Assembly (NCBI GenBank): GCA_964477915.1
Contig: CAYZGB010000003.1
Location: 1 to 49,094, forward strand
From: an uncultured Melioribacter sp.
Lineage (GTDB): Bacteria > Bacteroidota > Ignavibacteria > Ignavibacteriales > Melioribacteraceae
Direction: 5' to 3'
DNA: 49,094 nt
A model generated the notes under the pieces. It saw only the letters and a program-made list of their open reading frames with translations, was not told the origin of the DNA and searched no databases. Made by a program: the position numbers and the translations under genes. Shown here piece after piece: positions 7,205 to 48,724 of this stretch. How positions within the stretch are numbered: position 1 is the stretch's first letter; each line of letters opens with the position of its first letter.

Positions 7205-7232
7205 TAATTAAAAACTCTGTACATTTGTTTTA

Positions 7233-28356: not shown

Positions 28357-29751
28357 CTATTTTTTTATTCCTACTCGTTCGAGTTTTCCCCAACTCATTG
28401 CCAATCCTAAAAATTCTTCAATTGTTGCCATTCCTTTGGTAATATCAATCATAAGAACGAAGAAGATTCTGTAAATCAAAGAGTAAGGAATTAATCTTGC
28501 CTCTTCTTTTTCGGCAGATACACAGAAAATTGCAGCCATAAAGTCAAGAATAGCAATGCCAAACCACCAAAAAACAATCAAACTTGTCATTCCATAAAAC
28601 AAAGCGACAACAATAAAGAAAAGATTAGCAAAGATATTCATTGCCGGCCAAAGTAATGCTTCGAAAGCCATTGACCATAAAATAAGCGTATTATTAAAAT
28701 TAATTATCGGATTGTACAAAAACTTTTTATGTTTACGAATTGCTTGCAAAATTCCACGCGTCCAACGATAACGTTGCTTTAACAACTGAAATAGTGTTGA
28801 TGGTGCTTCCGTCCAAGCTTGGGCTTCCGGTTCGTATTCAATTTTCCAACCTTTTGCCAAAATTTTAAGTGTTAAATCGGCATCCTCGGCAAAAGTATCG
28901 CTTGAATAATAACCAGCATCGTGTAAAGCTCTCTTTCTAAAAATACCAATCGGACCCGGAATAATATTTACCATTTTTAAGAAACCCTGTGCCGAACGAG
29001 CCATATTCAAACCTTCGATATATTCGAGAGCCTGCAAATCCAAAAGAGGTTTTCCACGATTTATTACTTTTACATTTCCAGCTACTGCACCAACTTCCGG
29101 ATCTACAAAATGTCTCATCCCCATTTTCAGAGTTTTGGGAGATAATGCCGAATCACCGTCCATACACAAAACAAATTCTGCTTCGGAATATTGTATTCCT
29201 GCATTCAAAGCTTTCGACTTTCCACCATTCGGTTTATTTATTAAAGAAACTTTGACCCAAGACATTTTCCCTTTATGTAATCCTACCAAGGATTCACCAA
29301 TTTCGGCTGTATTATCAGTTGAACCGTCATTAACAATAATTATTTCATAATTGGGATAATCCAATTTTAGTAACGATTCAATTGAATCTTTCAAAACCTT
29401 GCCTTCGTTGTAAACAGGAACAATAATGGAAACAAAAGGTGAGTAAAAGGGTTTTTCCTCAACCGTGTATTTTGACATATAAAAATAAGATAGCCAAATC
29501 AAGGTAAAATACCGAGCTAACAAAATAAACAGAAATAAAACCAAAGCAACAATTGAAGCGTAAACAAAAAGTCCGCTTAATGGAAGAATTGTCATTGGAA
29601 GAGTTATAGCAATGATAATGATTAAAATAATAGAAATTATTCCCGAAATAATAGCCGATTTGAGCTTCTCCTTTTTAAAGTCTCTTTTTGGAGGCTCAAT
29701 CTCTCTATTATCCAAAACAATTTTCAGTTTTTCTTTTTTTGCATTATTCAT
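28357..29751 (-). CDS. Processive family-2 glycosyltransferase (PgaC/IcaA/BcsA-core-like polysaccharide synthase), no PilZ domain
   Basis: N-terminal TMs; motifs VPVYNEG, NDGSTD, GGKSKALNAG, CMDGDS, FAEDADLT and QRYRWTRG (QxxRW); C-terminal TM bundle. Confidence 0.88.
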   Translation of the reverse strand: MNNAKKEKLKIVLDNREIEPPKRDFKKEKLKSAIISGIISIILIIIIAITLPMTILPLSGLFVYASIVALVLFLFILLARYFTLIWLSYFYMSKYTVEEKPFYSPFVSIIVPVYNEGKVLKDSIESLLKLDYPNYEIIIVNDGSTDNTAEIGESLVGLHKGKMSWVKVSLINKPNGGKSKALNAGIQYSEAEFVLCMDGDSALSPKTLKMGMRHFVDPEVGAVAGNVKVINRGKPLLDLQALEYIEGLNMARSAQGFLKMVNIIPGPIGIFRKRALHDAGYYSSDTFAEDADLTLKILAKGWKIEYEPEAQAWTEAPSTLFQLLKQRYRWTRGILQAIRKHKKFLYNPIINFNNTLILWSMAFEALLWPAMNIFANLFFIVVALFYGMTSLIVFWWFGIAILDFMAAIFCVSAEKEEARLIPYSLIYRIFFVLMIDITKGMATIEEFLGLAMSWGKLERVGIKK

Positions 29752-29895
29752 TGTTATGCCTTAATTATGTGCGAATTTTTTTCGCTAAAACTCCTTTAAA
29801 ATATAATATAAATTATAAATCTTTTCAAGATAATATCTTACAAAAAATATTTAAAGTATTCATCTAAATTTTCAGCGTATCTTTTTGAAAAATAA

Positions 29896-32748: not shown

Positions 32749-34130
32749 TCTCCCAAAAAGTCAGTTATCGGGATATAAAGATTTTCAGTAGTAGTTGGCG
32801 AAGAAAGGTAATCTAAAATTGTTTCTGCACGGTCTAAATTTTCATCAACTTCATAATTAAAAAGCTTTACAAGATCTTTTGCTTCTTCTTTTGTAAAACC
32901 AAGATTTAGAATATTTGTATAAACATTTCTAACTATTTCAAAAATTCGTTCGTCTGTACTACGAGGAACAAGCACCATTGTTAAATCACCGATATAGCAA
33001 ATTTTCTCGCGTCTTTGAGTAGAGGCAACAATAATTCCTTTTATGTCGTCTAAGTTTACTCCTTTGGTTTCGAGCAAAGCGATGGAAACCGCAAACGAAA
33101 TAATATTAAATTTATCCGAAGTACTTCTAAATAATACAATTTGATTATTAATAATTAACGAAAAATCATTGTAGTTGTAAACGTTCGAAGCATTAACATT
33201 TACTACGCGAGTTGGAGTTTCCGTTTTTCTTGCTACTTCATTATTAATTTTTTCTGTTTCAATTCCACTTTCCGCATCAGTTCCGTAAACAGGATTTTCG
33301 TTAATCTCGTGTAAATTCCTTGCATAAAGTTCGTCGGCTTCTTCATCATAAACTCTTGAAATTTTTTCGGCTTCTCTTTCACGAACATCTGTAACAGAAA
33401 GATTTATTTCATTCTCCTCACCTAAGTTTACAACTACACCTTTGTATGGCAAAATTTTATATTGCTCCGAAAATTGTCCTTCCGTATGTCCAATATTTGG
33501 TGTGATAATAACCGTACCGCCGTAAAATTTTTTATCAATCTTACGAGCATCTTTTTTCAAATAAACCACACCGGTTACCAAACTAACTACCAAATCAACA
33601 ATTTCATTTGCTCTTCTTGTAGCCGGTTCGGCAATTACAAAGAGACTTGTAATGTCTCTATTTTCAATTTCTTCAAGTAAATGTAAAAAAGATTTTTTAA
33701 GGGTTGCCAAATCGCGAAAACCAACATAAGGTGTTAATTCATCGAAAACAATTCTTTGAGGATTGTATTGTTTACTAACACTAATTATATCATTTAAGTA
33801 TTCAATTAAAAGTTCATCGTTAACATTCGAACTATATATTTCTTCAGGACTTGCTACACGCACTACGATAATTAAATTTTTATCCATATATTTTTGAATA
33901 TCAAAATTTAGTGATGCGGCTTGAATCATCAAGTCTTTGGGACGCATATTTGTAAAATAAACACAAACTTCCCCTTCTTCAGCGGAAGCCTTGGCAAACT
34001 GTAATCCAAGTAATGTTCTTCCCGATTTTCTAGCACCAATTACAAGGTAACTTCCACCTTCGTAAACACCACCCCATTTTTTATCTATTAAATTAAATCC
34101 AGATTTATGTAACCTTATTGGTAAACTCAT
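32745..34130 (-). CDS. KaiC/RecA-like P-loop protein with Walker A Lys->Arg, fused to a C-terminal domain that loosely resembles a degenerate GGDEF domain
   Basis: LIDKKWGGVYEGGSYLVIGARKSGRTLLGLQFA (GxxxxGRT instead of GK[ST]) and Walker B-like RIVFDELTP. The C-terminal ...REKICYIGDLTMVLVPRS is aligned by eye to R-x-GGDEF-x-ll. Its stop overlaps the next gene by 4 nt. Confidence 0.6.
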   Translation of the reverse strand: MSLPIRLHKSGFNLIDKKWGGVYEGGSYLVIGARKSGRTLLGLQFAKASAEEGEVCVYFTNMRPKDLMIQAASLNFDIQKYMDKNLIIVVRVASPEEIYSSNVNDELLIEYLNDIISVSKQYNPQRIVFDELTPYVGFRDLATLKKSFLHLLEEIENRDITSLFVIAEPATRRANEIVDLVVSLVTGVVYLKKDARKIDKKFYGGTVIITPNIGHTEGQFSEQYKILPYKGVVVNLGEENEINLSVTDVREREAEKISRVYDEEADELYARNLHEINENPVYGTDAESGIETEKINNEVARKTETPTRVVNVNASNVYNYNDFSLIINNQIVLFRSTSDKFNIISFAVSIALLETKGVNLDDIKGIIVASTQRREKICYIGDLTMVLVPRSTDERIFEIVRNVYTNILNLGFTKEEAKDLVKLFNYEVDENLDRAETILDYLSSPTTTENLYIPITDFLGE

Positions 34131-34264
34131 AATTTTTATTCCTAAATTTTCTCGTTAAATCCCAATTATCATACCAAAAATTTTTGCGTTTTTTTTTCAT
34201 TTTGACACAAAAAATAAAATATATTTTGTCCGAAATACCAAATTGTATTAAAATGAGACAATAA

Positions 34265-35908
34265 TTATCTCAAATTTCCAAACACGAATACAGCAGTGGC
34301 ATTAGCGGAAATTGTCGGTTCATTGCAAACATAATCATTTCTGTCATCTCTGTAATACGCATCGTCCGTTTGAAAAGCAGAAAATTTATCTTTTGTTTCG
34401 TAATTAATATTTAAATCACCATAAATTTTCTTCATAACGGGACCACCTGTTAATCCACCAGGTAATTTTCCTTTGTTAAAATATGCAACCTGATGATGAA
34501 AATGCTTTGTGTAATTTGCACCTTTGCCATAAATAAAACTAATTCCCCAAGGATTTCTACCTAAAATGTAGTCGCGGTTAATAAACTCAATTTTATCAAA
34601 CGTGTTATCATTTGTAAATTTTTTATATAAAATATTCGTTAATGCTACTCCGAGTAAATTCATATTACTACCCCAATATAAGTCAACGCCCTCACCAAAA
34701 ACTTTACTTTCGGAATGTTTTTTAAATTTTATTAATGATTTTTGAAGAAATTCAATAAAAGCCTTATCATATTTGGCAATTTTGTAATCCGCAATATTTG
34801 CAACATTTCCCCAGCCCCACCAAGCCTCCGTACCGGCTTTTCTTGCAAAATTTTCCGAATCTTGCAGATATTTTTCATTTCCGGTTAATTCATACAATTC
34901 AATTGCAGCAAGCGAAAGTTTTCCGTTAAATTTCGTATCCCTGTAAAAACCGGTTCCGGTTGTATCCAAATCGTCGCTTTCGTTAATCAGTTCGTAAAAG
35001 CCAATTGCAGTATTTTTAAGCTTTTCGGCAAATTCCGAGTAATGAATTTTATTTTCCCAAATTTTTGAGCCAAGTGCCAATGCAGCTACATAAATACCAA
35101 TTAGATTTTTGCCAATACCTATAAAACCGGGTCTATCAAATTGTAGCGGGTCGTTTTCTGGTAATCGCCAGCCGACTTTCTGATCTTTTTCATTCTGGAC
35201 TTGCGTTACTAATTTTCTGTTTTTATAATTGGCACGTAATAACCAATCAAGTCCAATTTTTGCTTCCTCAAGAATATCCGGCACTTGATTTTTATTCAAA
35301 TCGAATGAAAATTTTTCAGGAGCAAAATCATAAGAAAAAAGTAGTAAATATGTGGAAAATGCAATTGTGTTCAAAAACTTAGTGTAATCGCCCGCATCGT
35401 GCCAACCTCCGGTTACATCAAAAATTTCGTGTCTTTCCTTGCCATTTTCTATAATTGAAGTAACATCGGAAATATGACATTTTTTATGCAAATAAGGATG
35501 AGTGGGACCGCATCTTTGAACTTCAAAAAATTTCAGTAAATATGAAGCAAAACCCGAATAAACATTATCGGAAATTTCAAATTGAGGAGATTTTGAATCA
35601 GCTATTAATAATGCAAATCGCCCTTTATTTTTGAAATCGCTAAAATCAATTTCGTATGAATAAGGAAATGAAGCATATTTTCCTTTTGAATTTCTAATGA
35701 AATCGGAAAAAACTTTTACATTAACTTTATCAACTAAATAAAACCTCCGACCGGTTAAATTAATATTACTGAGAACTATTGCAGATTTAACATCATCGGT
35801 ATTGAATCCTACTTGATTTACGCGAATATAAATTTTAGGATTTCCGTTACTTTGAGCTGTTGAACAACCGGAAAATATTAACAATAAAACGAATAAAATC
35901 CGCTTCAT
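34265..35908 (-). CDS. Glycoside hydrolase family 9 endoglucanase lipoprotein (CelD_N Ig-like domain plus GH9 catalytic domain)
   Basis: Lipobox LIFSGC, Ig-like N-terminus IYIRVNQVGFN, GH9 signature DVTGGWHDAGDYTKF, and C-terminal YRDDRNDYVCNEPTISANA. Confidence 0.88.
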   Translation of the reverse strand: MKRILFVLLLIFSGCSTAQSNGNPKIYIRVNQVGFNTDDVKSAIVLSNINLTGRRFYLVDKVNVKVFSDFIRNSKGKYASFPYSYEIDFSDFKNKGRFALLIADSKSPQFEISDNVYSGFASYLLKFFEVQRCGPTHPYLHKKCHISDVTSIIENGKERHEIFDVTGGWHDAGDYTKFLNTIAFSTYLLLFSYDFAPEKFSFDLNKNQVPDILEEAKIGLDWLLRANYKNRKLVTQVQNEKDQKVGWRLPENDPLQFDRPGFIGIGKNLIGIYVAALALGSKIWENKIHYSEFAEKLKNTAIGFYELINESDDLDTTGTGFYRDTKFNGKLSLAAIELYELTGNEKYLQDSENFARKAGTEAWWGWGNVANIADYKIAKYDKAFIEFLQKSLIKFKKHSESKVFGEGVDLYWGSNMNLLGVALTNILYKKFTNDNTFDKIEFINRDYILGRNPWGISFIYGKGANYTKHFHHQVAYFNKGKLPGGLTGGPVMKKIYGDLNINYETKDKFSAFQTDDAYYRDDRNDYVCNEPTISANATAVFVFGNLR

Positions 35909-36418: not shown

Positions 36419-36455
36419 TTTTTCCACCTTTCATTTTATTTGAAAGAACATATAA

Positions 36456-36473
36456 GCGTCCATTTATGGACGC
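36456..36473 (-). terminator. Hairpin downstream of the T9SS cargo gene (weak terminator)
   Basis: gcgtcca-taaa-tggacgc on the minus strand, with only a modest T-rich tail. Confidence 0.4.
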
Positions 36474-36493
36474 CTTAAAAATTAAATTGATAA

Positions 36494-39400
36494 TTATTTT
36501 AACAACATCAATTTTTTAACCGATACGAAGTTCCCAGCGGAAATTCGATAGAAATAAATACCGGAAGAAACTTTCTTACCGTTATTATCCGTTGCATTCC
36601 AAACAACGCTATAATATCCGGCAGATAAATCACTCGAAACAAGTGTTTTTATTTCTTTACCAGTAATATCATAAATCTTTAATGTTACAAAAGATTGTTC
36701 CGGTAATTGGAATTTAATCGTTGTTGTCGGGTTAAACGGGTTCGGGTAATTTTGCGAGAGTTCAAATTTCGCTGGAATTTGTGAGCCGTTATTAACAGCA
36801 GTTGGAGTATAAGTTGTAAATTTACCGACCGGCGAATAATATGATTCACCATTTTGATTAACCGATTTTACTCGCCAGAAATATTTTTGATTTTCTTGAA
36901 GTCCGTTAATCTGAACAAAAGGCTCGGAAATATTATCTATTTCGATAGGATTTGTGAAATCCTGAGTTGTTGAATATTCAATAACATAATTTAATGTTGA
37001 CTCCGATTGAGCAGGTAAAACCCAACTTACAATCGGAGATGTTACAGTAATATTAACATTGTTAGGACTTCCAGGTAAAGGTGTAACTGGATTTGAACCC
37101 GGATTTACCGTAAAATGATAAGTTGAAGAATAGTTGGAATAAGTACTTCCTCCATAAAACGATCTAACTTTCCAGTAGTAAGTTGCACCAGGTGTTAAAC
37201 CGGTTAAAGAAAGTGAATTAGATGTAGAAGTAGTTGTAGTTGTTACGGAAGGATCAAATACATCGGATGTACTGTAAGTAATTTCATAATTCTGAATACC
37301 AGTTGTTGAACCATTTACATACCAGTACAAAGTTACATTGTCATCGTAAATCACCGAACCATCATCGGGAGCAGAAAGTATTGGAACACCGGCTGTTGAA
37401 GGACCAACAACAGTGAAAGAACCTTCCGACCAAGCAGAGTAATTACTTCCGTCGTAGGAAGCAACTGCCCAGTAATAAGTTGAACCGTAAGTTAAGCTTG
37501 TTGTAAATGTATAATATGTTGTATTCAAATTCGTAATATCGGCACTTCCATCGTAATCGGTAAGCCAATCGGTTGAATTGCTACCTTCTTTCCAACGAAC
37601 TACATATTTAGTTAATCCAAGTGAAGAACCTTCAAGATACCAGTATAAGGTAGGCTGATTTGTGTAAACTACCGGATTTCCGGTTGGATAAGTAACAACA
37701 GGATAACCATTCGAAACGCCGCCGGCAATTGTAAATGTACCAACCGGATTTGACCATGCGGATTGGCTTGAACCGTTATTTGAGCGAACTCTCCAATAAT
37801 ATGTTGTTCCAGCTGTTAAACCGGAAGCGTGAATGTAGGTTACATTCGTTGTTGTTGAACCGGTGTAATCCGGTGAAGCAAAAGTATTATCATCATCAAC
37901 CTGAATATCATAAGTTAAACCTATTCCCGAATCATTAATATACCAATATAAATATGGAGAAGTTGTGTAAATTGTTACGCCTCCGGTAGGATATGAAACA
38001 ATCGGAACTACCAACGTTCCGCTTCCGTGAGTGCTAAATGATTCTACACTTGACCAATCTCCAAATTCCGAGGTAGCCGCATAATATGGACGGACTTCCC
38101 AATAATATGTTGTTCCAGGAGTTAAACCTGAGAGCGTATGATACATTGCACTTGTTGCAGTTGCTATGTTTGCATCCGTCGGTTCGCTTACAGCACTTGC
38201 ATCGTTTAATTCACCATTTGCATCTACACTATTGCTTGTTGCATAACGAACTTGATAAGTTACACCGGTTGCATATTGATCAACATACCAATATAGAGTT
38301 GGTGAATTTGTATAAACGGTAGCCCCGCCAATAGGATATGACGGAAAAACCGTAACAGTTGCACCACCGGCAGTATCAAAATAATAAGTAGATGAGTAAT
38401 CAACAACTTCGTTTGAGGCATTAAGAACAATTACTCGCCAGTAATATCTTTTTCCGCCGTTGACACTTAATGAATAATAAGTATTTGTAGTAGTTACGGA
38501 AGTTGCAGATGCCCATTCCGAAGTTGTTGGCGGAGTATTATCACTCTGATCGGTTTCTTGATACTGAAGTTTATATTGTAACGTTCCGGTAGATTGATTA
38601 ATTATCCAACCAAGTTGTACTGTTGTTAAATAAACAGTTGCACCATTATCAGGATTTGTAAGAGTTGGAGTTACATCCGGGAATGTAGTAAAATGATAAG
38701 TTGAACTATAATACTCATTTCCGGCATTATCAACCGAAGCAACTCGCCAGTAATAGATTGTACCATTGCTTAACGGGAAATTATTATCTGCTTCTGTAAA
38801 TGCTTTGCTTAAATTTGTTCCTTCATCTTCTTCGAAAATTGGTGTTGCAAAATCACTTGCATCATCAACATAAATTTTGTAGGAAACAGCACCGGTTACA
38901 GCTTGCCAAGTCATTGTAGGTTCAATAGCAACTCCGGTCAAACCATTTACAGGAGCAGTTAACGTCGGTCCCGGAATTGTTAAAGTAAAACTTCCAGTTG
39001 TACTTACCTTGGACTCTCCATTATTTGGAGCTGTCGCATCATTTACTGTTGCAGTAACCTTCCAATAATAAACACCGGCAGAAGGAAGTGAAATTGATGT
39101 TGTTAATACTCCAGATACTGTGGAATTACCAACTACATTATTAAAAGCATTATCAGTTGCAACAACAACATCAAAATCCACATTGGAATAGTTTCCCGCC
39201 ATACTCCAGTTAAAGGTTGTTGTAGAAGAATAACTACCACTTGGATCAATTAATGAGGGAGTAGCAAGTTCCGTAGTGAAAGAGTAACTGTGCCAAGAAC
39301 CATCCGTCCCTGCTCCGTCTGTATCAGTATCTTTCACACGCCAATAATAAGTAGTATTATTAACAACAGTAACAGAAAGAGAAGTTGCGGAAGTACCGGA

Positions 39401-39619
39401 AATAGTAGCATTAGGGGATGCAAAAGTTGCATCGTCATCAAACTCTGCATCGTAAGGGCCATTGCCGTTGCCATCATCAAAATCCGTCCAACTAACAGAA
39501 GTTAGTGTTGCAGAAACTGATGTAGCTCCATCGGCTGGCGTTACAGGAGTTTGAGAATATATCTGTGATGAAAAAACTGCGAAAAGTAAAACAAGTAAGG
39601 TAAGCTTGAGACGTTCCAT
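36494..39619 (-). CDS. Large secreted repeat protein with a C-terminal T9SS (Por_Secre_tail) sorting domain
   Basis: Signal peptide and nine Fn3/Ig-like modules, each ending in a (T/G)xYYW(R/K)V motif. The C-terminus is NYPNPFNPTTTIKFQLPE...GIYFYRISAGNFVSVKKLMLLK. Confidence 0.85.
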   Translation of the reverse strand: MERLKLTLLVLLFAVFSSQIYSQTPVTPADGATSVSATLTSVSWTDFDDGNGNGPYDAEFDDDATFASPNATISGTSATSLSVTVVNNTTYYWRVKDTDTDGAGTDGSWHSYSFTTELATPSLIDPSGSYSSTTTFNWSMAGNYSNVDFDVVVATDNAFNNVVGNSTVSGVLTTSISLPSAGVYYWKVTATVNDATAPNNGESKVSTTGSFTLTIPGPTLTAPVNGLTGVAIEPTMTWQAVTGAVSYKIYVDDASDFATPIFEEDEGTNLSKAFTEADNNFPLSNGTIYYWRVASVDNAGNEYYSSTYHFTTFPDVTPTLTNPDNGATVYLTTVQLGWIINQSTGTLQYKLQYQETDQSDNTPPTTSEWASATSVTTTNTYYSLSVNGGKRYYWRVIVLNASNEVVDYSSTYYFDTAGGATVTVFPSYPIGGATVYTNSPTLYWYVDQYATGVTYQVRYATSNSVDANGELNDASAVSEPTDANIATATSAMYHTLSGLTPGTTYYWEVRPYYAATSEFGDWSSVESFSTHGSGTLVVPIVSYPTGGVTIYTTSPYLYWYINDSGIGLTYDIQVDDDNTFASPDYTGSTTTNVTYIHASGLTAGTTYYWRVRSNNGSSQSAWSNPVGTFTIAGGVSNGYPVVTYPTGNPVVYTNQPTLYWYLEGSSLGLTKYVVRWKEGSNSTDWLTDYDGSADITNLNTTYYTFTTSLTYGSTYYWAVASYDGSNYSAWSEGSFTVVGPSTAGVPILSAPDDGSVIYDDNVTLYWYVNGSTTGIQNYEITYSTSDVFDPSVTTTTTSTSNSLSLTGLTPGATYYWKVRSFYGGSTYSNYSSTYHFTVNPGSNPVTPLPGSPNNVNITVTSPIVSWVLPAQSESTLNYVIEYSTTQDFTNPIEIDNISEPFVQINGLQENQKYFWRVKSVNQNGESYYSPVGKFTTYTPTAVNNGSQIPAKFELSQNYPNPFNPTTTIKFQLPEQSFVTLKIYDITGKEIKTLVSSDLSAGYYSVVWNATDNNGKKVSSGIYFYRISAGNFVSVKKLMLLK

Positions 39620-39722
39620 AACATCTCCTTTATTTTGTTGGTTTAATATAATAATATTAATATTGACTTCAAAATATCAGGGAAAAGAACATTTGGGTAT
39701 GATTTAAATCACAATTTGAATT

Positions 39723-41057
39723 TTATTGAAAATTTTCCGTAAGATGATTTTTTGCTAAAATAAAAACTTCTTTCCAATTATCTATTTGTGGTTGACGGAA
39801 AATAGTTATTGAAGGATACCATGTTGATTTACTTTCATCCATTCCCCAGCGCCAATCGTGATTTTTAGAAAGCAAGAGTAAAACCGGTTTTCCCATTGCA
39901 CCGGATAGATGTGGAATAACTGTATCGGTAGTAATAATTAAATCGAGATTATCAATAATAGCGGCGGTATCCGAAAAATCTTTTAGATATTCGGATAAAT
40001 TCACGACTTCATTTTCGAGTAAAAACTCTTTTTCGCGATCAAAAATATCTTTTTGCAAAGAGAAAAAAACTGTGTTTTTTATTTCAAATATTTCCTTAAA
40101 GAATTTAACATTCGTCGAGCGAATATGATTTTTTGCAAATGTTGGATTTCCACGCCACGCGATGCCTATCTTTTTTTTGTCAGTATTTAACAAAGCACGC
40201 CATCGTTCGGATTTTTCTTTATCAGCAAAAATATACGGAATATCAATTGGGATATTTTCTTTATTAATCTTTAAAGCATAAGGCAAACTCATTAACGGAA
40301 TTTGCAAATCGTATTTTGACATTGGTGAAAAGTCCGGACGCGTTGGGACAACTCGGTCAATAAAATCAACGTTTTTGAGCAATCCTAATAATTCAATTTG
40401 AACTTCTAGAATTATTTCTCCAACTCTTTCCTTTGCAATTTTCAAAAATCGGATAAATTGAATTACATCACCGAAGCCTTGATCCGCATAAACATAAAGA
40501 GTTTTATCTTTTGCCACTTCCCCGTTCCAACGTTTGCCCGGCAATTCTTTCCGCTTTAATTCATCACTTTTAAATCGATATTCGAAAAGTTCAAATCCTT
40601 TTTCGTAATTACCGGTTAATAAATATAGCATTGACAAATTGTAATATGCGGAATAATAATCTGGATTTATCTTAATTGAGATTTCGTACTCCGAAATTGC
40701 TTCGAAAACTTTTCCACTTTCGGCAAGTGCCAAAGCATAATTGTAATGTGCCAAATAATTTTTTGGATCTCTTTCAACAGCTTGACGGAAATAATTTAAG
40801 GCAATATCAATATCTCCTTTACGAAAGAATGCTATCCCCAAATTAATTAGTGGTGTTGCCGAGTTTGTTTCAATTTCCGAGACCTTTTTTAGTTTTTCAA
40901 CTGCTTTCGAAAAATCGCCCGTCTGCAAATAAACAAAAGCAAGTAAATTAAGGACTCCCGTATTACCCGGTTCTTCAACCTCTTTATTTACAAGTAATTT
41001 TCTCGCTTCCGAAAATTTTCCTTCGTTTAATAAAGATTTTATTTCAACTGGAATCAT
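39723..41057 (-). CDS. TPR-repeat protein fused to a GT9 (heptosyltransferase-like, GT-B) domain
   Basis: N-terminal TPRs, then YADQGFGDVIQFIRFLKIAKE, IAWRGNP...N.IRS and TTDTVIPHLSGAMGKPVLLLLSKNHDWRWG. Confidence 0.75.
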   Translation of the reverse strand: MIPVEIKSLLNEGKFSEARKLLVNKEVEEPGNTGVLNLLAFVYLQTGDFSKAVEKLKKVSEIETNSATPLINLGIAFFRKGDIDIALNYFRQAVERDPKNYLAHYNYALALAESGKVFEAISEYEISIKINPDYYSAYYNLSMLYLLTGNYEKGFELFEYRFKSDELKRKELPGKRWNGEVAKDKTLYVYADQGFGDVIQFIRFLKIAKERVGEIILEVQIELLGLLKNVDFIDRVVPTRPDFSPMSKYDLQIPLMSLPYALKINKENIPIDIPYIFADKEKSERWRALLNTDKKKIGIAWRGNPTFAKNHIRSTNVKFFKEIFEIKNTVFFSLQKDIFDREKEFLLENEVVNLSEYLKDFSDTAAIIDNLDLIITTDTVIPHLSGAMGKPVLLLLSKNHDWRWGMDESKSTWYPSITIFRQPQIDNWKEVFILAKNHLTENFQ

Positions 41058-44000
41058 TTTTCACCTTCCAAAACTTTGAGTAATCTATTCTCCAATTCAC
41101 TTATTACGCTATCCCAATTTCCGTATTCTTTTTGACGTAACAAAATAGCGCTCGGGTAAAACTTTGTCTTTTCACCGGCAGAACCCCATCTCCAATCGGG
41201 ACTGTAATGCAATAACCCAATTGACTTTTTCCCCAATGCTCCCGCAAGATGAAGAAACACTGTGTCAATCGAAATAATCAAATCCATTGTATTCATTAGT
41301 TTGGCAATTGAATAAAAATCCGTAAAATATTTTTCTTCCCAAATAACATTGCTAAATTTATTGATAAAAGAAAATTCTTCATTGTTTAATTCTTTTTGTA
41401 ATAAATAAAATTCTAAATTTTTGTGTGCAAATAAATTTTCAAATCTCTTTAAATCCAAATGCCTTTTTCTTTGATGTACAGGGAAAGGATTACCTCTCCA
41501 AGCAATAGCAATTTTAGGTCTATCGGTTTTGATTGAAAATTTTTCATCTACGTCAATATATTTTCCCGGTGAAAATATTTTACGAAATACCTTGTAATAA
41601 AGGGGGAAAAGCGAAACAACCGGAATTGAATAATCATAGTTAGCAGCATTAACATAATTTATATTTAACGCTTCGTAAATAAATTTTTGCTTTTCAAATA
41701 ACGGAACAAGAGAATCTCGAACCGCTACTGATATTTTATTTTTTTGTGCAAAAGGAATAACGAACCTGATGAATTGAATTGTATCGCCTATTCCTTGTTC
41801 CTCAAAAATTAAGATATTTTTGTTTTCAAGTTCATTTAATTTTTCCGGTAATCTCGGATTTATTAACGGCGGATTTATTTTAAATCGTGCGTCGTAAAAA
41901 TCAAATCCTTCTTCAAATTTATTTTGCGAAAATTTAACTTCGGATAGAGCCAATTTGTATTCCGCTTTTTCTTCGATAGATAATGCGGTAATAATTTCTC
42001 GCTCAGCTTTTTCAAATTCCTTTTCCTCTTGAAAAATCAAGCCTAAATTGTAATGCAATTCGGCATCGTCTTTATTTTCAGTTAATAGTTTAATATAAAT
42101 TTCTTTTGCATTTTTAATTTCGCCAATTGTATAAAACACAGAAGCAAGATTAAACCAAGCGTAATAATAACTTGGCGAAAGCGAAATTGCTTTGGTGTAA
42201 TATTTTATTGCATCAGAGAAGTTTTCTTTTTCAACAAAAAATTTACCTAATAAGAAATTAATTTTCGCAGAATTCCCAAACGTGGATTTTATTTTATCGA
42301 GATTACGTTCGAAGTTTTGCAATTCACCAGTAGTTAGCAACAACAACAAATAATTGTAATAAATATCTTCCGATAGAACATCGGGGAAAAGTTTTTCGTA
42401 AAACTTGCGTGCCTCTTTCAATTGCCCGAGTTTATGGTAAGCGAGTGCAATGTTAAAAATAATTTCATTCGACTCGTTTCCATTATTGTATGCCTCCAAA
42501 AGTATTTTCAATCCTTCTTGCATTTTGCCGATTGAGAACAAATGCAATGCGTTGTTCAGAAAAATTTCAGCCGTTTCGTTTACATCAACAATTTGATTAT
42601 TTGATTTTCCAAATCTTTCTTTCAACGTCAAAGAAACTTTTTTCAAAACATCATTCCAATTTCCTAATTTATCTTGAATAAACATTTCAACATTATTGTA
42701 CCAATCGGTTTGTTTTCCGTCTTGCCAACGCCAATCGGAATTTTTGGGAAGCAAAAGCAAAGTATTGATTTTTAAAGTTAAGGCAAGATGAACAATTGCA
42801 GTATCAACTGAAACAAGTAAATCAATTTCGGGAAGTAATTTCGCAGTATCAAAAAAATCGTTTATCGATTCGGATAAATCAATAATTCCGTGTTTACTTA
42901 AAATCGCTTTTTCTTCCTCAGTAGGGGTCGGCTCAAACGAATAAATTTCGCATTTGCAATTTTCGAATGCACTTAATAATTGAGCTAATTTTATTGAACG
43001 ATATTTATCATTTTCGTGATTTGCATTTCCCCGCCAAAAAATTCCAACACGATTTTGAGTTAATTTAACATTTGATTTTTGAACATCGAAAAGAGATGAA
43101 GCTAACGAAACATTTTCAGCATTTAATAAAAACGGCAAACTTAACAACGAAATTTTACAATCGTAATTTTTTAATTCAGAATTTTCTTCATCCCTAATAA
43201 AAACAGCATCAAAAAGACCGCTCGCTTCAAAAAGCCTTGCCAGGGCTTTACGAACTACAATCCCAATTTTTTTCGCATTTACATATTTTACAAAGCGAAG
43301 GAATTGAATTGAGTCACCAAAACCTTGCTCTTCGTAGAAAAGAATTTTTAAGTTACTTGCATTCGTTAAATTTTCACATTCAGGTAATTGAATTAAATTT
43401 TGAAAATAATCTTTTTTTCGTTTCCGCCATTCGAATTCTTCCCAAGCCTTGCCGTAACGCCCGAACCTCAATAAAATCAAGGATTTGTTCCAATGTGCCT
43501 CGGCAAATCCGGGATTAATATTAATTGCTTTATCATAAAATTCTAATGCCTTCTCGTATTCGTAAAGTTTTTCGTACAGCACTCCAATATTGTAATAAAT
43601 TGAATCTTCTTCGGAATAACCGGTTGATAAAGATTTTTCAAAAAGTTGAATCGCATTTTTGTATTCACTATTCATTCTCTTAATCGATGCTAACAAATAA
43701 TATGCTTCCGGGAAATGATTATTGACTTCTAGTATTTGATTTAACAAGGCTTCCGCTTTATTGAATTTTTCGGCTTCAAAATAGTTCTTTGCCGCATTAT
43801 ATAAAAAAGAGATTTCATCTTTATTTATTTCGAACAAATCAAAGTAAGTTTGAGCTGCACGAATTTTATTTCCACTCTTTTCGTATGCTTTTGCAAGTAT
43901 GCTTAATAATTGGGGAAAAGTTTTGTTTAGTTGGTTTTCTTCAATAAAATCAATAACCTTTTTAGCTCCGCCACGTTTAATTTTTTTTTCGAGGAATGTT

Positions 44001-44116
44001 AAAAATTTGCTTGAAATTTTTTCATTGTTAAAAATATCGGTAAGAATTAATACAACATTGCCCTCTCTGTTTGTCAATAAGCTTTCAAAATCAATATTTT
44101 CAACCTCCTCTTTCAT
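41054..44116 (-). CDS. Tandem (TPR-GT9) x 2 fusion protein
   Basis: Two copies of the same module. Copy 1 has YEEQGFGDSIQFLRF ... FWRGNANHEND ... VSVDTAIVHLALTL...DWRWQ. Copy 2 has FEEQGIGDTIQFIRF ... AWRGNPFPVHQ ... ISIDTVFLHLAGALG...DWRWG. Each copy is preceded by TPRs. Confidence 0.75.
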   Translation of the reverse strand: MKEEVENIDFESLLTNREGNVVLILTDIFNNEKISSKFLTFLEKKIKRGGAKKVIDFIEENQLNKTFPQLLSILAKAYEKSGNKIRAAQTYFDLFEINKDEISFLYNAAKNYFEAEKFNKAEALLNQILEVNNHFPEAYYLLASIKRMNSEYKNAIQLFEKSLSTGYSEEDSIYYNIGVLYEKLYEYEKALEFYDKAININPGFAEAHWNKSLILLRFGRYGKAWEEFEWRKRKKDYFQNLIQLPECENLTNASNLKILFYEEQGFGDSIQFLRFVKYVNAKKIGIVVRKALARLFEASGLFDAVFIRDEENSELKNYDCKISLLSLPFLLNAENVSLASSLFDVQKSNVKLTQNRVGIFWRGNANHENDKYRSIKLAQLLSAFENCKCEIYSFEPTPTEEEKAILSKHGIIDLSESINDFFDTAKLLPEIDLLVSVDTAIVHLALTLKINTLLLLPKNSDWRWQDGKQTDWYNNVEMFIQDKLGNWNDVLKKVSLTLKERFGKSNNQIVDVNETAEIFLNNALHLFSIGKMQEGLKILLEAYNNGNESNEIIFNIALAYHKLGQLKEARKFYEKLFPDVLSEDIYYNYLLLLLTTGELQNFERNLDKIKSTFGNSAKINFLLGKFFVEKENFSDAIKYYTKAISLSPSYYYAWFNLASVFYTIGEIKNAKEIYIKLLTENKDDAELHYNLGLIFQEEKEFEKAEREIITALSIEEKAEYKLALSEVKFSQNKFEEGFDFYDARFKINPPLINPRLPEKLNELENKNILIFEEQGIGDTIQFIRFVIPFAQKNKISVAVRDSLVPLFEKQKFIYEALNINYVNAANYDYSIPVVSLFPLYYKVFRKIFSPGKYIDVDEKFSIKTDRPKIAIAWRGNPFPVHQRKRHLDLKRFENLFAHKNLEFYLLQKELNNEEFSFINKFSNVIWEEKYFTDFYSIAKLMNTMDLIISIDTVFLHLAGALGKKSIGLLHYSPDWRWGSAGEKTKFYPSAILLRQKEYGNWDSVISELENRLLKVLEGEK

Positions 44117-45629
44117 TCGATGCTTTTTTTAATTTATCAATTATTCCTTGCAATTTGTTTTTCAATTCCGAGTTTTCCGAATGATGTTCTTTAACCACAT
44201 TTAATAACATTTCCAATTTAGGAAGATTCATTTGCTTTAAATATATATTGAACAAGTACCAAAAAGTCATTAAATCTTCCGGGTTTAATTCCAGTGCTTT
44301 TTCAAAATACTTTACACTAATTTCCGGGTATTTTGAAATTAACCGACTTCCCGCTGCGTAATTGAACGTATAATCATTTTCAAAATAAGGTTTTAATAAA
44401 CTTAAACTTTCCTTAATCGTAAAATCATTCAAGTAAGAAAAAGATTTAACAAGGGAATTTATATCAATTTTATTTTTGATTTTCTCAAAATTTTCCATTG
44501 TGGATTTATCAATTAATCCTCTACTGAAAATTTCGTGATAAAACTCCATTACCATTTTATCTTCTTCTGCAATTTCAACACGCGAAAGTTTCTCAAAAAA
44601 GAATTCAAAAAGTTCTTTGTTTGAAATAATCAAAGCAACGTTGATTCCGTAAAGCAACATATTTTTTTCGTTGATGAAAATATCAAATTTTGTCGTCCGT
44701 TTTCCTTCCAATAATTCCTGATTGTAATTGTAAGCTTTAATTACGTGTGAAGAAATAATTCCCTTTTTATCTTCACCTTGCCACATATCCAAATAAACAT
44801 TAGAAAGCAATACGTGAAGCAATGGTGAACTCTCCACATATTCCAAACCTTTTTTAGCGTATGTTTCCGCTTGTTGTAAATTGCCTTTATGGAATTCGCT
44901 TGCCGCCAAATATCGATACGCTTGTGCAAGATGATTTTCGTCCAGTACCGGATTTTCGATCACCTTCAAAAAATATGGGACAGATTTTTCCGTTTCTTCA
45001 AGCATCATATACGATTGCCCGATTTGAAAAGCATCGTAAATCGAACCGGTTTCTTCATAATCCTTTAATAACAAATCAAGATTTCTACGAGCCTTCTTTA
45101 AAAGAATTTCTTTATCTACATTATACCCTAAATGAATAATGGTTATGTTTGAGTCCAAAAATTCGTAACCTAATGCACGTAATGAAGGCTCAATCTGTTC
45201 GTGAACTTTCCCGGTAAATCGGGCTTTCGGATCGTATCTGAAAAATCTTAAAAATTTCATTGAGGAAGGCAAAGCATCTTGCTCGGAATGACTTACAACA
45301 TTACAAAAATATGCAATATTACTATTATTTGTAATGTAACGTTTTATTTCATTAATAGAATCTTTATCGAGGCGTTCATCAGCATCAAGATATAAAACCC
45401 AATCGGAAGTTACCTTTGATAATCCAAAATTACGAGCAGCGGAAAAATCATTTTGCCATTCGAAGTGAAAAATTTTGGCATTGTTTTGTTTAGCAATTTC
45501 AAGTGTTTTATCGGTAGAACCGGTATCGACTAAAACTATTTCATCAACAACATTTTTTACGGAATCAAAGCACCCTTGAAGATATTTCTCTTCGTTTTTA
45601 ACAATAATGCATAATGCAATTGTTGACAT
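44100..45629 (-). CDS. Family-2 glycosyltransferase with a C-terminal TPR/helical-repeat domain (SunS-like architecture)
   Basis: CIIVKNEEKYL, VLVDTGSTDKT, WQNDFSAARN, YLDADERL, FRYDPKARFTGKVHE and IIHLGYN, followed by a helical repeat region. Confidence 0.8.
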   Translation of the reverse strand: MSTIALCIIVKNEEKYLQGCFDSVKNVVDEIVLVDTGSTDKTLEIAKQNNAKIFHFEWQNDFSAARNFGLSKVTSDWVLYLDADERLDKDSINEIKRYITNNSNIAYFCNVVSHSEQDALPSSMKFLRFFRYDPKARFTGKVHEQIEPSLRALGYEFLDSNITIIHLGYNVDKEILLKKARRNLDLLLKDYEETGSIYDAFQIGQSYMMLEETEKSVPYFLKVIENPVLDENHLAQAYRYLAASEFHKGNLQQAETYAKKGLEYVESSPLLHVLLSNVYLDMWQGEDKKGIISSHVIKAYNYNQELLEGKRTTKFDIFINEKNMLLYGINVALIISNKELFEFFFEKLSRVEIAEEDKMVMEFYHEIFSRGLIDKSTMENFEKIKNKIDINSLVKSFSYLNDFTIKESLSLLKPYFENDYTFNYAAGSRLISKYPEISVKYFEKALELNPEDLMTFWYLFNIYLKQMNLPKLEMLLNVVKEHHSENSELKNKLQGIIDKLKKASNERGG

Positions 45630-47743
45630 TAATTATTTCCGGTATCGTTATCGTCAAGTCCTAAGGCTCTGTTAACTTTTACCAGTTCACTTAAAGCGTA
45701 TTTATTATGAGGATTTATCTTTAGCGATTTTTCCAAATATTTTTTCGCTTCTTCGTCTTTTCCCATTAAGAAATGTACAGTCCCCAAGCCTGCGTAACCT
45801 TGTGCTGTTTCGGGATTATACTCAACAGATTTTTTGAAATGTTCTAATGCAGTTTCATTATCTTGAATTCCCAAATAATTAAAGCCAAGGAAATTATTTA
45901 TGCTTGATAATGCAAATGATTTATCCTCTTCTTTAAAGTTTTCAATAATTAACTTTTCGGCTTCCAATAATTTCTCAATTGCTTCTCTAAATTCTTTAAC
46001 TGCAAAATCATCGTAAGCATCTTCAATTAACTTTTCAATTTTTTCTTCCGGTGTTAGTTCATCACTTCCATCTATTTCCATATTTGTTGGGTCAATGTCT
46101 TTTTCCAACAATTTACTAACCTTTTTCAAACCGGCTTCGGCAAATTTATTACCTGGGTCATTCTTTATAGCCCATTCGTACATTACTTTTGCATTTTCAT
46201 CTTCTTCAAGCAGATAGAAAATTTCGCCAAGTCCGGCACAGGCTTGGGAACTTTCGGGGTTAAGAACCAATGCATTTTCGAATGATTTTCTTGCTTCATC
46301 AAACTGATTTAATCCCAAATAACAAAAACCTTCAAAATTCAAAATGCTTGCTAATGCAATTTTGCCTTCTCGGTGACTGGGAGTTTCTTCATAAAAATTT
46401 TGTGCTTTTTTCAAATCTTCAATTGCCGATGCAAAATTTTTATTTGTAAATTTTTCGTAAGCAGATGTAATTAGTTCATTAAATTCTTCACTATCTTCAA
46501 TATCAATTCCCAATTTTAAGGTATTATGATCGGCAGGTAATCCGAGGGACTTATTCACTTTTGCCAAACCGGCAATCGCAAAACTATTTAGAGGATTATT
46601 TTTAACCGCCCATTCGTACATTACTTTTGCCTGCTTGTCATTTCCGGTTAAATAAAAAACTTCGCCAATACCGGCACAAGCTTGCGAACTATCGGGATTA
46701 AGTTCCAACGATTTTTCGAATGTTTCTTGCGCTTCAGCGATTTTTTCCACAGCTAAATAATTAACTCCGATAAAATTCTTAATTCTTGCAAGAACATCAT
46801 TTTTATTTTCAATTTCCGATCCTTCTATCTCCATAAAAAGATTATTTAAGATTTCAATTGCTTCGTTAAATTCCTTCGCTTCAAATTTTGAAAAAGCTCG
46901 GGACATTTCTTCTTCAACTTTACGCTCTATTTCCTCATCGGAAATTGTTTCTTTTAAGCTGTGAACTGGAGATAATCCAAGATCTTGATTAACTTTTGCT
47001 AAACCGACTAAAGCGTATTCATCATTCGGAGACACTTTAAGAGCCTGCTCATACATTATTTTACTATCTTTTTTCAACCCTTTTTTGTAGAAGTACTCAC
47101 CTAAACCAATAAAAGCGGGAGCAGAATTTTTATCAACTGTAAGAACCTTTTCAAAAACTTCGCGTGCTTTTTCCAAATTATTTTCGGCAAGCAAAATATT
47201 TCCTTTTAGCAAAAGGACATCAACGTTATTTTTATCTTCAATTTCGTTTAATTTATCAAGCGCTTCGGAATATTTGTTATCGATAAACAAAGAATATGCG
47301 TCGTCATATTTCTTTTCATCGCTGTTTTCATCAATTTCTTCATCTAATGAATTGTGATCGGAGGGATAGCCTAAATATTTGTTAATATTTCTTAAAGCAG
47401 TAATTGCCCGAATATTTTCAGGTTCGTTCTTAACAGCCCATTCGAACATTTTTTTTGCTTCTTCTTTCATTTCGGCAATGAAAAATATTTGTCCCAAACC
47501 AAGACAAGCTTCAGCAGAGTTCGGATTTAGTTCCAAAGCCTTTTGGAAAGCTTCCAATGCAAATTCAACATCTTCTTGTTCAAGTGCAATAACTCCTCTT
47601 AAAACATTAATATCTTCAAGTGATATTTCATTTGCATTTTCTTCAAAAGAATTTTCGGCTTCGGACAAAGCATTTTGTGCTTCGTCAAAATTCCCTTCCT
47701 TAAACAATTCGTAAGCTCTTTGAAACTTTTCTATAAAGCTCAT
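45629..47743 (-). CDS. Cytoplasmic TPR-repeat protein built from five ~140-147 aa modules
   Basis: No signal peptide. The repeated block is (S/A)xAxxGLGExFY...AKxMYEWAxKNxPxN..AxxGLxKVNxxLGL, each copy followed by an acidic linker. Confidence 0.8.
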   Translation of the reverse strand: MSFIEKFQRAYELFKEGNFDEAQNALSEAENSFEENANEISLEDINVLRGVIALEQEDVEFALEAFQKALELNPNSAEACLGLGQIFFIAEMKEEAKKMFEWAVKNEPENIRAITALRNINKYLGYPSDHNSLDEEIDENSDEKKYDDAYSLFIDNKYSEALDKLNEIEDKNNVDVLLLKGNILLAENNLEKAREVFEKVLTVDKNSAPAFIGLGEYFYKKGLKKDSKIMYEQALKVSPNDEYALVGLAKVNQDLGLSPVHSLKETISDEEIERKVEEEMSRAFSKFEAKEFNEAIEILNNLFMEIEGSEIENKNDVLARIKNFIGVNYLAVEKIAEAQETFEKSLELNPDSSQACAGIGEVFYLTGNDKQAKVMYEWAVKNNPLNSFAIAGLAKVNKSLGLPADHNTLKLGIDIEDSEEFNELITSAYEKFTNKNFASAIEDLKKAQNFYEETPSHREGKIALASILNFEGFCYLGLNQFDEARKSFENALVLNPESSQACAGLGEIFYLLEEDENAKVMYEWAIKNDPGNKFAEAGLKKVSKLLEKDIDPTNMEIDGSDELTPEEKIEKLIEDAYDDFAVKEFREAIEKLLEAEKLIIENFKEEDKSFALSSINNFLGFNYLGIQDNETALEHFKKSVEYNPETAQGYAGLGTVHFLMGKDEEAKKYLEKSLKINPHNKYALSELVKVNRALGLDDNDTGNN

Positions 47744-47902: not shown

Positions 47903-48724
47903 TTACAGATATTTTTTTGAAACGTGTTTGATAATTTTATTGTAAGCATCATCAACAGTATCGCAAAAATCAAATAATTTTAAGTCTTTTTTGCTAATTG
48001 TTCCGGCATCAACAAATTCTTGGAAATTGATTGTCTTTTTCCAATATTCCGAACCGTAGATAATGATTTTCAAATCCTTATGGATTTTACGAGTTTGAAC
48101 TAATGTCATCGCTTCAAAAAGTTCGTCCATTGTTCCGAAACCGCCCGGGAAAACTATTAAAGCTTTAGCCATATAAATAAGCCAAAATTTACGTACAAAA
48201 AAGTAATGAAATTCAAAAGCCAATTCGGGCGAAACGTAGTCGTTTACGTATTGTTCAAACGGCAAACTAATATTCATACCAATTGATTTTCCTTTCGCTT
48301 CTTTTGCCCCGCGGTTAGCCGCTTCCATAATTCCAGGACCACCACCACTTGCAATAATAAATTTTCTTTCGGGATGGCCGAGTTCATTTGACCAAAGTGT
48401 TAAACGTTTCGCCAATTCGCGTGCATCTTCGTAGTATTTCGAAAATTCCAAATCTCTTTCGGCTTTTTGTAATTTTTGCTTGTAATTTCTGCCTTTATTC
48501 TTTTGTTTTTTCAACTCACGTAAATTCTTTTGTGCTTCCGCTTTTGATAATAACCTTGCAGAACCGAAAAACACAAAAGTATCGGTAATTCCATATTTAC
48601 TAAATCTTGCATCCGGTTCAATAAATTCTGCAAGTACACGAATTTCCCTTGCTTCGTGCGAAGTCAGAAACTCAATATTTTTATACGCTTTTTTAGGTTT
48701 AATTTTTTTCTTGTTCATTTTCAC
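47903..48724 (-). CDS. LOG-family / TIGR00730 Rossmann-fold nucleotide-binding protein (cytokinin riboside 5'-monophosphate phosphoribohydrolase-like)
   Basis: GGGPGIMEAANRGA and PGGFGTMDELFE motifs. Confidence 0.85.
   Translation of the reverse strand: MKMNKKKIKPKKAYKNIEFLTSHEAREIRVLAEFIEPDARFSKYGITDTFVFFGSARLLSKAEAQKNLRELKKQKNKGRNYKQKLQKAERDLEFSKYYEDARELAKRLTLWSNELGHPERKFIIASGGGPGIMEAANRGAKEAKGKSIGMNISLPFEQYVNDYVSPELAFEFHYFFVRKFWLIYMAKALIVFPGGFGTMDELFEAMTLVQTRKIHKDLKIIIYGSEYWKKTINFQEFVDAGTISKKDLKLFDFCDTVDDAYNKIIKHVSKKYL

Follow-up and report, generated by a model that had tools for sequence, protein, structure and literature searches.

A four-gene cassette of tetratricopeptide-repeat glycosyltransferases from Ignavibacteria as a candidate offshoot of flagellin-glycosylation islands

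What is modified by a set of soluble glycosyltransferases (GTs) that are fused to tetratricopeptide repeats (TPRs) and encoded beside a secreted protein rich in hydroxyl residues? The question is raised by four overlapping genes on the minus strand of a 49,094-nucleotide stretch of DNA from an uncultured Melioribacter sp. (GenBank assembly GCA_964477915.1, contig CAYZGB010000003.1, positions 1 to 49,094), which we refer to as the window. In order, the genes of this cassette encode a stand-alone TPR protein (T704), a family 2 GT followed by TPRs (GT2-TPR), a protein in which TPRs and a GT9-like module alternate twice, and a single TPR-GT9-like protein. The initial annotation of the window had described four soluble proteins from overlapping genes and a short gap to a neighboring gene for a protein with a type IX secretion system (T9SS) sorting domain, and open reading frames (ORFs), Pfam matches and hydropathy agree exactly: the overlaps are 1, 17 and 4 nt, the gap to the 1041-amino-acid (aa) neighbor is 103 nt, and no TM-like (transmembrane) or signal-like segment was found in any of the four cassette proteins (maximum 19-residue Kyte-Doolittle mean ≤1.53). 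On our best reading, the cassette is a compact offshoot of flagellin-glycosylation islands and constitutes a TPR-guided multi-enzyme protein O-glycosylation system. With about even confidence we hold that it encodes soluble cytoplasmic protein-glycosylation enzymes of the Ignavibacteria lineage that originated in such islands, that the substrate is most likely flagellin, and that the T9SS neighbor is incidental. The substrate would then most likely, if unproven, be a flagellin whose gene lies elsewhere in the genome and which is modified ahead of flagellar export.

The evidence for this view comes chiefly from the relatives of GT2-TPR. In a metagenome scan with a GT2-TPR alignment, cassettes of the T704 type were recovered first, followed by full-length relatives at 30-40% identity. 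Flagellin lies downstream of these non-cassette relatives, immediately or within three genes, in 26 of the 27 loci with informative flanks. The gene order there is one to five flagellin genes, a 112-aa FlaG-like gene, FliD, and genes of 110 and 86 aa, with Flagellin_N/C and FliD_N/C domains recognized by Pfam. A named Ignavibacteria metagenome-assembled genome (MAG), locus L173, is a case in point: it encodes a GT4, a TPR-methyltransferase, a 1345-aa multi-GT protein, an 889-aa TPR-GT that includes a GT9-like module, GT2-TPR, flagellin, the 112-aa protein and FliD. (At least one flagellin-type locus, L113, also carries a T9SS protein.) TPR-GT9-like genes stand beside GT2-TPR in flagellin loci more widely (L096, L098-L100, L110, L111, L119, L173, L027 and L075), and in a random sample of 80 genes of the TPR-GT9-like family from GTDB, 8 have flagellin or FliD within 10 kb, against a chance estimate of about 1%; the eight come from Planctomycetota, Neomarinimicrobiota, a deltaproteobacterium, Bacteroidota, Armatimonadota and Rhodospirillaceae. 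Moreover, in a neighbor-joining tree of 49 GT2-TPRs the T704-type sequences form one clade that is nested among the flagellin-adjacent ones. The initial annotation had stated that its proposal would fail if the GT genes were found next to lipopolysaccharide (LPS) or capsule genes; the relatives of the enzymes adjoin flagellin genes and not LPS or capsule genes. Flagellin is the most economical substrate. The Ignavibacteria include flagellated members, among them Ignavibacterium album (PMC3362086). (Note that a single-protein scan of the GTDB representatives with GT2-TPR found no relative, so the window species is apparently not among them.)

The properties of GT2-TPR itself are consistent with a role in protein glycosylation. 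Its N-terminal GT-A domain (residues ~1-200, nt 45030-45629) precedes a helical/TPR region with Pfam TPR matches at residues 202-264 and 435-452, and matches Glycos_transf_2 (PF00535) at E 7e-27 (94.9 bits against a cutoff of 23.3); the motifs VDTGSTD and YLDADE, the latter containing the DxD, are invariant in 7 orthologues. Among proteins of solved structure, the closest to it by sequence are GmaR (22ao, E 3e-33, residues 4-192) and SunS (7msp, E 4e-26). (Membership in the SunS family of peptide S-glycosyltransferases, TIGR04195, was rejected at 98.5 bits against an equivalog cutoff of 350; GT2-TPR is related to that family but not a member.)

The second protein that ties the cassette to flagellin islands is T704. 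TPR families are its sole matches in Pfam and NCBIfam, and it consists of five ~140-aa units, each ending in SSQACAGLGE..Y...AK.MYEWAVKN.P.N..A.AGLAKVN..LG(L/Y)P.DHN(S/T)L. It is the best conserved of the cassette proteins (75, 71, 57 and 54% identity to orthologues, versus 53, 54, 42 and 43% for GT2-TPR), and its family is small: the 58 clusters come from Ignavibacteria, Chlorobi or Melioribacteraceae MAGs, except for one from a Rhodothermaceae MAG and one labelled only 'bacterium'. T704 is a clade-specific addition, more conserved than the enzymes, and of all the cassette components it is the likeliest to define the substrate. The same features could also indicate that the cassette has been neofunctionalised and now glycosylates a different protein. 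This could be an abundant client, cytoplasmic or exported, that docks on T704, or it could be T704, at the LG(L/Y)P.DHN(S/T)L linkers, which contain Ser/Thr and are invariant across orthologues. We regard this as unlikely, although it has to be weighed seriously. What argues against it here is that the T704 repeat already exists inside a flagellin island and so need not signal a new substrate. In particular, a Bacteroidota MAG (L027) encodes, directly upstream of GT2-TPR and within such an island (5176-7221), a 682-aa TPR-Methyltransf_24-TPR protein made up of two T704-type units, the inserted Methyltransf_24 domain and a third unit, with the repeat (SSQACAGLGE..., MYEWAVKN..., KVNK.LG) conserved at 38-40% identity. 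This protein is plausibly a sibling of T704 or its evolutionary precursor, and Ignavibacteriaceae have related TPR-methyltransferases as well.

The remaining two proteins carry three GT9-like modules. The 1020-aa protein has the order TPR, GT9-like, TPR, GT9-like and matches PF01075 at E 2.6e-10 (40.5 bits, cutoff 22), whereas the 444-aa protein matches weakly (E 5e-4, 19.9 bits, under the 22-bit cutoff); both matches cover only the last ~55 profile positions, that is, the C-terminal part. A sequence search of the PDB with the GT9-like domain alone gave no match. AlphaFold models of the 444-aa protein (pLDDT 94.9 at full length, 95.3 for the GT domain alone) were searched with Foldseek, and the GT domain was nearest to 3TOV, WaaF (1PSW) and WaaC (2H1H), with template-modelling (TM) scores of 0.61-0.68; over these three and the protein heptosyltransferase TibC (4RAP), TM scores were 0.55-0.68 and identities 9-12%. 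Thus, the GT9 assignment made in the initial annotation, a weak call by Pfam, was confirmed for the fold. For the full-length model the top Foldseek matches were SPY and OGT, at TM scores of only 0.33-0.41 and root-mean-square deviations >13 Å, and these were driven by the TPRs. All three modules keep QG(F/I)GD, WRGN, DT...H, DWRW and NW, with QGFGD and DT..PH invariant or nearly so in 53-66 homologues; the motifs expected of GT9 enzymes are G-D in the N-lobe and D-(S/T)-x-x-x-H in the C-lobe. Judging from the models, the GT9 label appears right at the level of fold and superfamily, and the modules would be neither ordinary heptosyltransferases nor TibC-like. TibC has an iron site formed by a Cys cluster, and BAHT proteins such as TibC and AAH assemble into a dodecameric ring. 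Since the 444-aa protein lacks Cys altogether, it cannot have an iron site of the TibC type. (Membership in GT41, the family of OGT, SPY and HMW1C, was rejected as well: there was no PF13844 hit, and the GT domain alone matches GT9, not OGT.)

The TPR-GT9-like family is very large: there are 14,410 representatives at 50% identity (E≤1e-30), many of which have 3-6 modules, and lengths reach ~3,100 aa. No characterised member could be confirmed, although FlmG may be linked to the family. Megaproteins of 3,250-3,540 aa with 5-7 modules were seen in Microcoleus- and Hormoscilla-type cyanobacteria in GTDB (L033, L037, L040, L042, L046, L053 and L057), and Sporomusa silvacetica (L074) has seven tandem TPR-GT9-like copies in about six ORFs. 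Homologues ~43% identical are labelled as DPANN archaea (Pacearchaeota and Nanoarchaeota MAGs; P0017, P0028 and P0043), and reflect either horizontal transfer or binning contamination. A Pfam survey of the 103 operon-like neighbors of 80 diverse family genes showed no dominant operon partner, the commonest being TPR (8), GT2 (6), methyltransferases (5) and UbiA (4). In Undibacterium (L005) and on an Azospirillum plasmid (L177) the genes are alone or amid methyltransferases and GTs, with no flagellar genes, and are uninformative.

The four-gene cassette, its genes coupled or overlapping, occurs in 10 distinct genomic arrangements in MAGs of Ignavibacteria, Chlorobi and Melioribacteraceae type, and orthologues of the 1020-aa protein occupy the same cassette position in L001, L008, L003, L011 and L006. 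A gene of the LOG/TIGR00730 family lies upstream in the window (together with an OsmC-like gene, and with the T9SS protein with fn3 domains downstream), in L001 (downstream, a methyltransferase gene on the other strand) and in L008/9/10 and L093 (downstream, a PAS kinase and a sigma-54 regulator). A giant multi-GT protein is encoded upstream in L003/4/11/12 and L094 (GT1 and an APH kinase downstream), in L006/7 (GT1 and then a DUF4874/DUF4832 T9SS protein downstream), in L175, which has two (GT1 and, on the other strand, a melibiase downstream), in L176 (2566 aa; methyltransferase-GT1 downstream) and in JGI 3300042731 (2593 aa, with a radical-SAM domain; again methyltransferase-GT1 downstream). 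In L174/L095 the upstream genes are GmhA-like, HldE-like, GT10-like and GT2-methyltransferase-GT2, and EamA is downstream; in L002 the cassette is split, with a single TPR-GT9 gene 7 kb off. (We considered the LOG gene as a cassette member and rejected it: it is upstream in three arrangements only, 160 nt away, and 7 kb off in L006. The LOG/TIGR00730 genes of the window, L001, L008 and L006 are 81-83% identical between genomes, and we judge the upstream gene to be a syntenic remnant, not a functional partner.)

These contexts bear on whether the acceptor is a protein at all. If it were not, the enzymes would build a cytoplasmic or lipid-linked glycan (LPS core, an O-antigen-like polymer or a glycolipid) and the TPRs would serve only to assemble them. 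Most GT9 enzymes of characterised function are LPS heptosyltransferases, the best fold matches include WaaC and WaaF, and many cassettes are flanked by giant multi-GT/methyltransferase proteins. The GT1 and APH-type kinase that flank the cassette in L003/L011 recall the chain-terminating systems of ABC-dependent O-antigen synthesis, and these two loci lie ~3 kb from uppS-bamA-skp-lpxD. In L174 the cassette comes after GmhA-like and HldE-like genes. However, all 10 contexts lack an initiating polyprenyl-phosphate transferase, a flippase, an ABC exporter, a polymerase, and any membrane or lipid-carrier gene; the four proteins are all soluble; each catalytic module is joined to TPRs, the hallmark of the protein-directed enzymes OGT, SPY, FlmG and GmaR; and the sister group sits in flagellin loci with the same kind of giant multi-GT proteins. 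We therefore consider a non-protein acceptor improbable. The general idea of the initial annotation, a cytoplasmic protein-glycosylation system, thus stands on the homology to GmaR and SunS, the OGT-like architecture, the TibC-like fold and the lack of lipid-carrier genes, whereas its choice of T9SS cargo as the substrate does not.

Two features of these neighborhoods deserve mention in their own right. On the 1.5-Mb contig of L174, a reversed-domain HldE-like protein, a GmhA-like SIS isomerase and an epimerase are encoded just before the cassette and on the same strand (410-2456). The HldE-like and GmhA-like proteins both score under the NCBIfam equivalog cutoffs, and these neighbors hint, by sequence likeness, at a nucleotide-heptose-like donor for the GT9-like modules. 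The giant soluble multi-enzyme proteins, 1,300-2,600 aa long and common to flagellin-type and T704-type clusters (L104, L116, L122, L108, L102, L123, L176 and JGI 3300042731), combine as many as four GT2 domains in one chain with parts of the GT1/GT4, methyltransferase, polysaccharide deacetylase, radical-SAM and TPR types.

The proposal of the initial annotation was that the cassette glycosylates the adjacent Ser/Thr-rich T9SS protein, or T9SS cargo generally, before Sec export and in the manner of TibC and AAH. That the neighbor is such a protein, rich in Thr, Ser, Tyr and Asn, is correct: the sorting domain (type A) scores 39.6 bits with TIGR04183 (cutoff 23) and 33 with PF18962 (cutoff 27), Thr, Ser, Tyr and Asn make up 14.6, 11.8, 8.2 and 7.1% of the residues (window means 5.4, 6.4, 5.0 and 6.3%), the N-terminus is hydrophobic and signal-peptide-like (MERLKLTLLVLLFAVFSSQIYSQ), and the body consists of six Ig_Rha78A_N and three fn3 stretches. 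An abundance of hydroxyl residues would suit a glycosylation substrate, and so would the structural resemblance of the GT9-like domain to TibC. No terminator-like hairpin was found in the 103-nt spacer between the last GT gene and the cargo gene, so read-through from the cassette is possible; the spacer contains sigma-70-like matches, all weak, as well as GGAG 5 nt upstream of the cargo ATG and a G+A-rich tract (AAAGGAGA) that ends 4 nt upstream of it. In addition, the cassette of L006/L007 also precedes a T9SS protein, and in L008 a gene bearing a T9SS C-terminal sorting domain (CTD) ends two genes upstream.

Several observations nevertheless argue that the cargo is not the substrate. A CTD-bearing gene follows the cassette in only 2 of the 10 arrangements, and the two proteins, one with fn3/Ig repeats and the other with DUF4874/DUF4832, are unrelated apart from the sorting domain, which is the sole part they have in common. 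The co-occurrence of all five genes had been put forward in the initial annotation as a check, with GT genes lacking such cargo in most genomes as the outcome that would count against it, and this outcome is what we found. The closest relatives of the window cassette, those of L001 and of L008/9/10/L093 (68% identical when the GT9-like domains of the 444-aa proteins are compared, and 43-75% for the four proteins at full length), keep the upstream LOG gene, have different downstream genes and lack the cargo. Around the cassettes of L001-L012 there is no homologue of the cargo repeat body, the only homologous stretches being CTD regions of T9SS proteins, which are cassette-adjacent just in L006/L007, and by tblastn neither body nor CTD was found in L173-L176. 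The richness in Thr, Ser, Tyr and Asn reflects beta-sandwich Ig/fn3 domains, not mucin-like linkers, and the lack of Cys in the 444-aa protein separates it from TibC. Finally, the cargo gene has its own terminator, and an exopolysaccharide-type cluster lies 3' of it. We therefore think it very improbable that the cassette serves this protein or T9SS cargo at large, and we judge the cargo to be an incidental neighbor outside the glycosylation system. (The cluster beyond the cargo gene, at 28357-35908 on the minus strand, has a synthase-dependent look, and the cargo may be functionally tied to it.) The coordinates of all these features are given in Table 1.

Table 1. Positions in the window of the cassette genes, their modules and the neighboring features
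Feature	Position (nt)	Strand	Basis or remark
T704 (704 aa)	45629..47743	minus	ORF list; first cassette gene
GT2-TPR (509 aa)	44100..45629	minus	ORF list; Pfam
(TPR-GT9-like)x2 (1020 aa)	41054..44116	minus	ORF list; Pfam
GT9-like module 1 of the 1020-aa protein	42587-43471	minus	residues ~216-510
GT9-like module 2 of the 1020-aa protein	41057-41941	minus	residues ~726-1020
TPR-GT9-like (444 aa)	39723..41057	minus	ORF list; last cassette gene
TPR of the 444-aa protein	40566-41057	minus	residues 1-164
GT9-like GT-B domain of the 444-aa protein	39726-40565	minus	residues 165-444
Spacer, 103 nt, between cassette and cargo gene	39620..39722	minus	AT-rich
T9SS-sorted Ig/fn3 repeat protein (1041 aa)	36494..39619	minus	Pfam, NCBIfam; neighbor
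Terminator-like hairpin 3' of the cargo gene	36454-36475		
LOG/TIGR00730-family gene	47903-48724		directly 5' of the cassette
GH9 endoglucanase lipoprotein	34265-35908	minus	
KaiC-like ATPase	32745-34130	minus	
950-aa TPR protein with signal peptide	29896-32748	minus	C-terminal ...QWTPF typical of outer-membrane barrels
6-TM GT2 synthase	28357-29751	minus	

We next set out what weighs against flagellin as the substrate. Flagellin genes are absent from the ~10 kb flanks of all 10 T704-type cassette arrangements, and the window contains no flagellar gene. The neighbor-joining tree that nests the T704-type clade among flagellin-adjacent sequences carries no support values. For the GT9-like modules, family members linked to flagellin are about as distant as unlinked ones (36-40% identity), so the link to flagellin rests mainly on GT2-TPR and T704. 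The preferred reading also supposes flagellar genes in the host and the other cassette-bearing MAGs, and these genomes might carry a second, flagellin-linked GT2-TPR paralogue. Lastly, the two T9SS genes among the 10 arrangements slightly exceed a background of ~2% (nominal P about 0.01-0.06), a background that is not firm, since this density of T9SS genes was assumed and our home-made hidden Markov model of the CTD was too insensitive to estimate it (6 hits in 2033 ORFs).

Because no cassette lies near flagellin, the T704-type clade has lost its tie to the flagellin locus and may have switched to another substrate. The contrast with the sister group (0 of 10 arrangements versus 26 of 27 loci) favors the neofunctionalised cassette raised above, and so does the clade-specific conservation of T704; what speaks against it is that no conserved candidate substrate gene is kept beside the cassette in any of the 10 contexts. 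A shift to a new substrate is a serious alternative, given the distance from flagellin, the merely supposed host flagella, the possible paralogue, and the equidistance of the GT9-like modules. In one form of such a shift, which we regard as rather unlikely, a flagellin-glycosylation toolkit was re-targeted to new clients, with T704 as a multivalent docking platform for the GT2 and the three GT9-like modules. Possible clients are Sec/T9SS-exported surface proteins like the window cargo, and the cassette would in that case represent the first cytoplasmic GT2/GT9 route of protein glycosylation outside flagella and autotransporters.

Returning to the reading that we prefer, an offshoot of flagellin-glycosylation islands that still acts on flagellin, the division of labor could be as follows. 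The GmaR-like GT2-TPR would transfer the first sugar onto Ser/Thr of the substrate, and the three GT9-like modules would add further sugars, possibly from nucleotide-activated heptose or a related donor, or would modify further sites. By analogy with GmaR, FlmG and Maf/GlfM, it would fall to the TPR arms, together with the five-unit T704, to bind the substrate and to keep the enzymes in one assembly. Cytoplasmic O-glycosylation by TPR-fused GTs is understood in few cases (OGT/SPY, GmaR, FlmG and Maf). Ignavibacteria carry large flagellin-linked islands of such enzymes, one branch of which has become a compact four-gene cassette with a dedicated TPR protein, and assigning its substrate and donor would give the first functional handle on the GT9-like family of >14,000 representatives. 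The cassette could also show whether a separate TPR scaffold is able to take over the docking of a substrate.

Among known systems, the closest to GT2-TPR is GmaR, the flagellin beta-O-GlcNAc transferase and MogR anti-repressor of Listeria monocytogenes, in which TPRs come after a GT domain of ~180 residues that transfers GlcNAc to flagellin (PMC9638930). GT2-TPR has a homologous N-terminal GT-A domain of ~190 aa and then TPRs, and its relatives are encoded directly upstream of flagellin. However, GmaR is 637 aa long and GT2-TPR 509 aa (128 aa shorter); no similarity to the linker and anti-repressor (MogR-binding) region of GmaR was found in GT2-TPR, the chain of the GT domain alone being matched at E≤0.01; and, unlike gmaR, the window gene shares its operon with genes for GT9-like enzymes and for T704, and is not adjacent to flagellin. 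In FlmG, the pseudaminyl/legionaminyl transferase of Caulobacter and Brevundimonas, a TPR region (1-313) binds flagellin and a GT-B domain (309-596) selects the donor (PMC7591256; bioRxiv 10.1101/2022.03.25.485807). The 444-aa protein resembles FlmG in architecture, being soluble and cytoplasmic with an N-terminal TPR and a C-terminal GT-B of ~290 aa, and TPR-GT9-like members occur in flagellin loci of several phyla; unlike FlmG, the cassette has three such GT modules, two of them fused, plus GT2-TPR, and no genes for pseudaminic or legionaminic acid (Pse/Leg) biosynthesis lie nearby. The N-terminal TPR superhelix and C-terminal GT-B of OGT and SPINDLY (GT41) are likewise found in the 444-aa protein, this likeness too being architectural only. 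TibC/AAH (BAHT) and WaaC/WaaF provide the closest solved folds for the GT domain, and the GD of their N-lobe and the DT...H of their C-lobe are present in the window modules, but TibC and WaaC lack a TPR fusion, the modules are only 9-12% identical to them (9-11% for TibC), and the window has neither an autotransporter nor an LPS-core context. For the role proposed for T704, the adaptor precedent is the tripartite Maf/GlfM system of flagellin glycosylation, in which GlfM is a separately encoded specificity factor for a flagellin glycosyltransferase (bioRxiv 10.1101/2023.12.03.569772), although GlfM is a small four-helix bundle, T704 a 704-aa TPR protein, and Maf is unrelated to GT2 and GT9. 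Thus, the parts are of known kinds, namely a GmaR-like GT2-TPR, TPR-GT-B fusions in the style of FlmG and OGT, and a GT9/TibC-like fold, and what is new is their fixed four-gene combination, the lineage-restricted, stand-alone TPR protein of five units, and the detachment from the flagellin locus.

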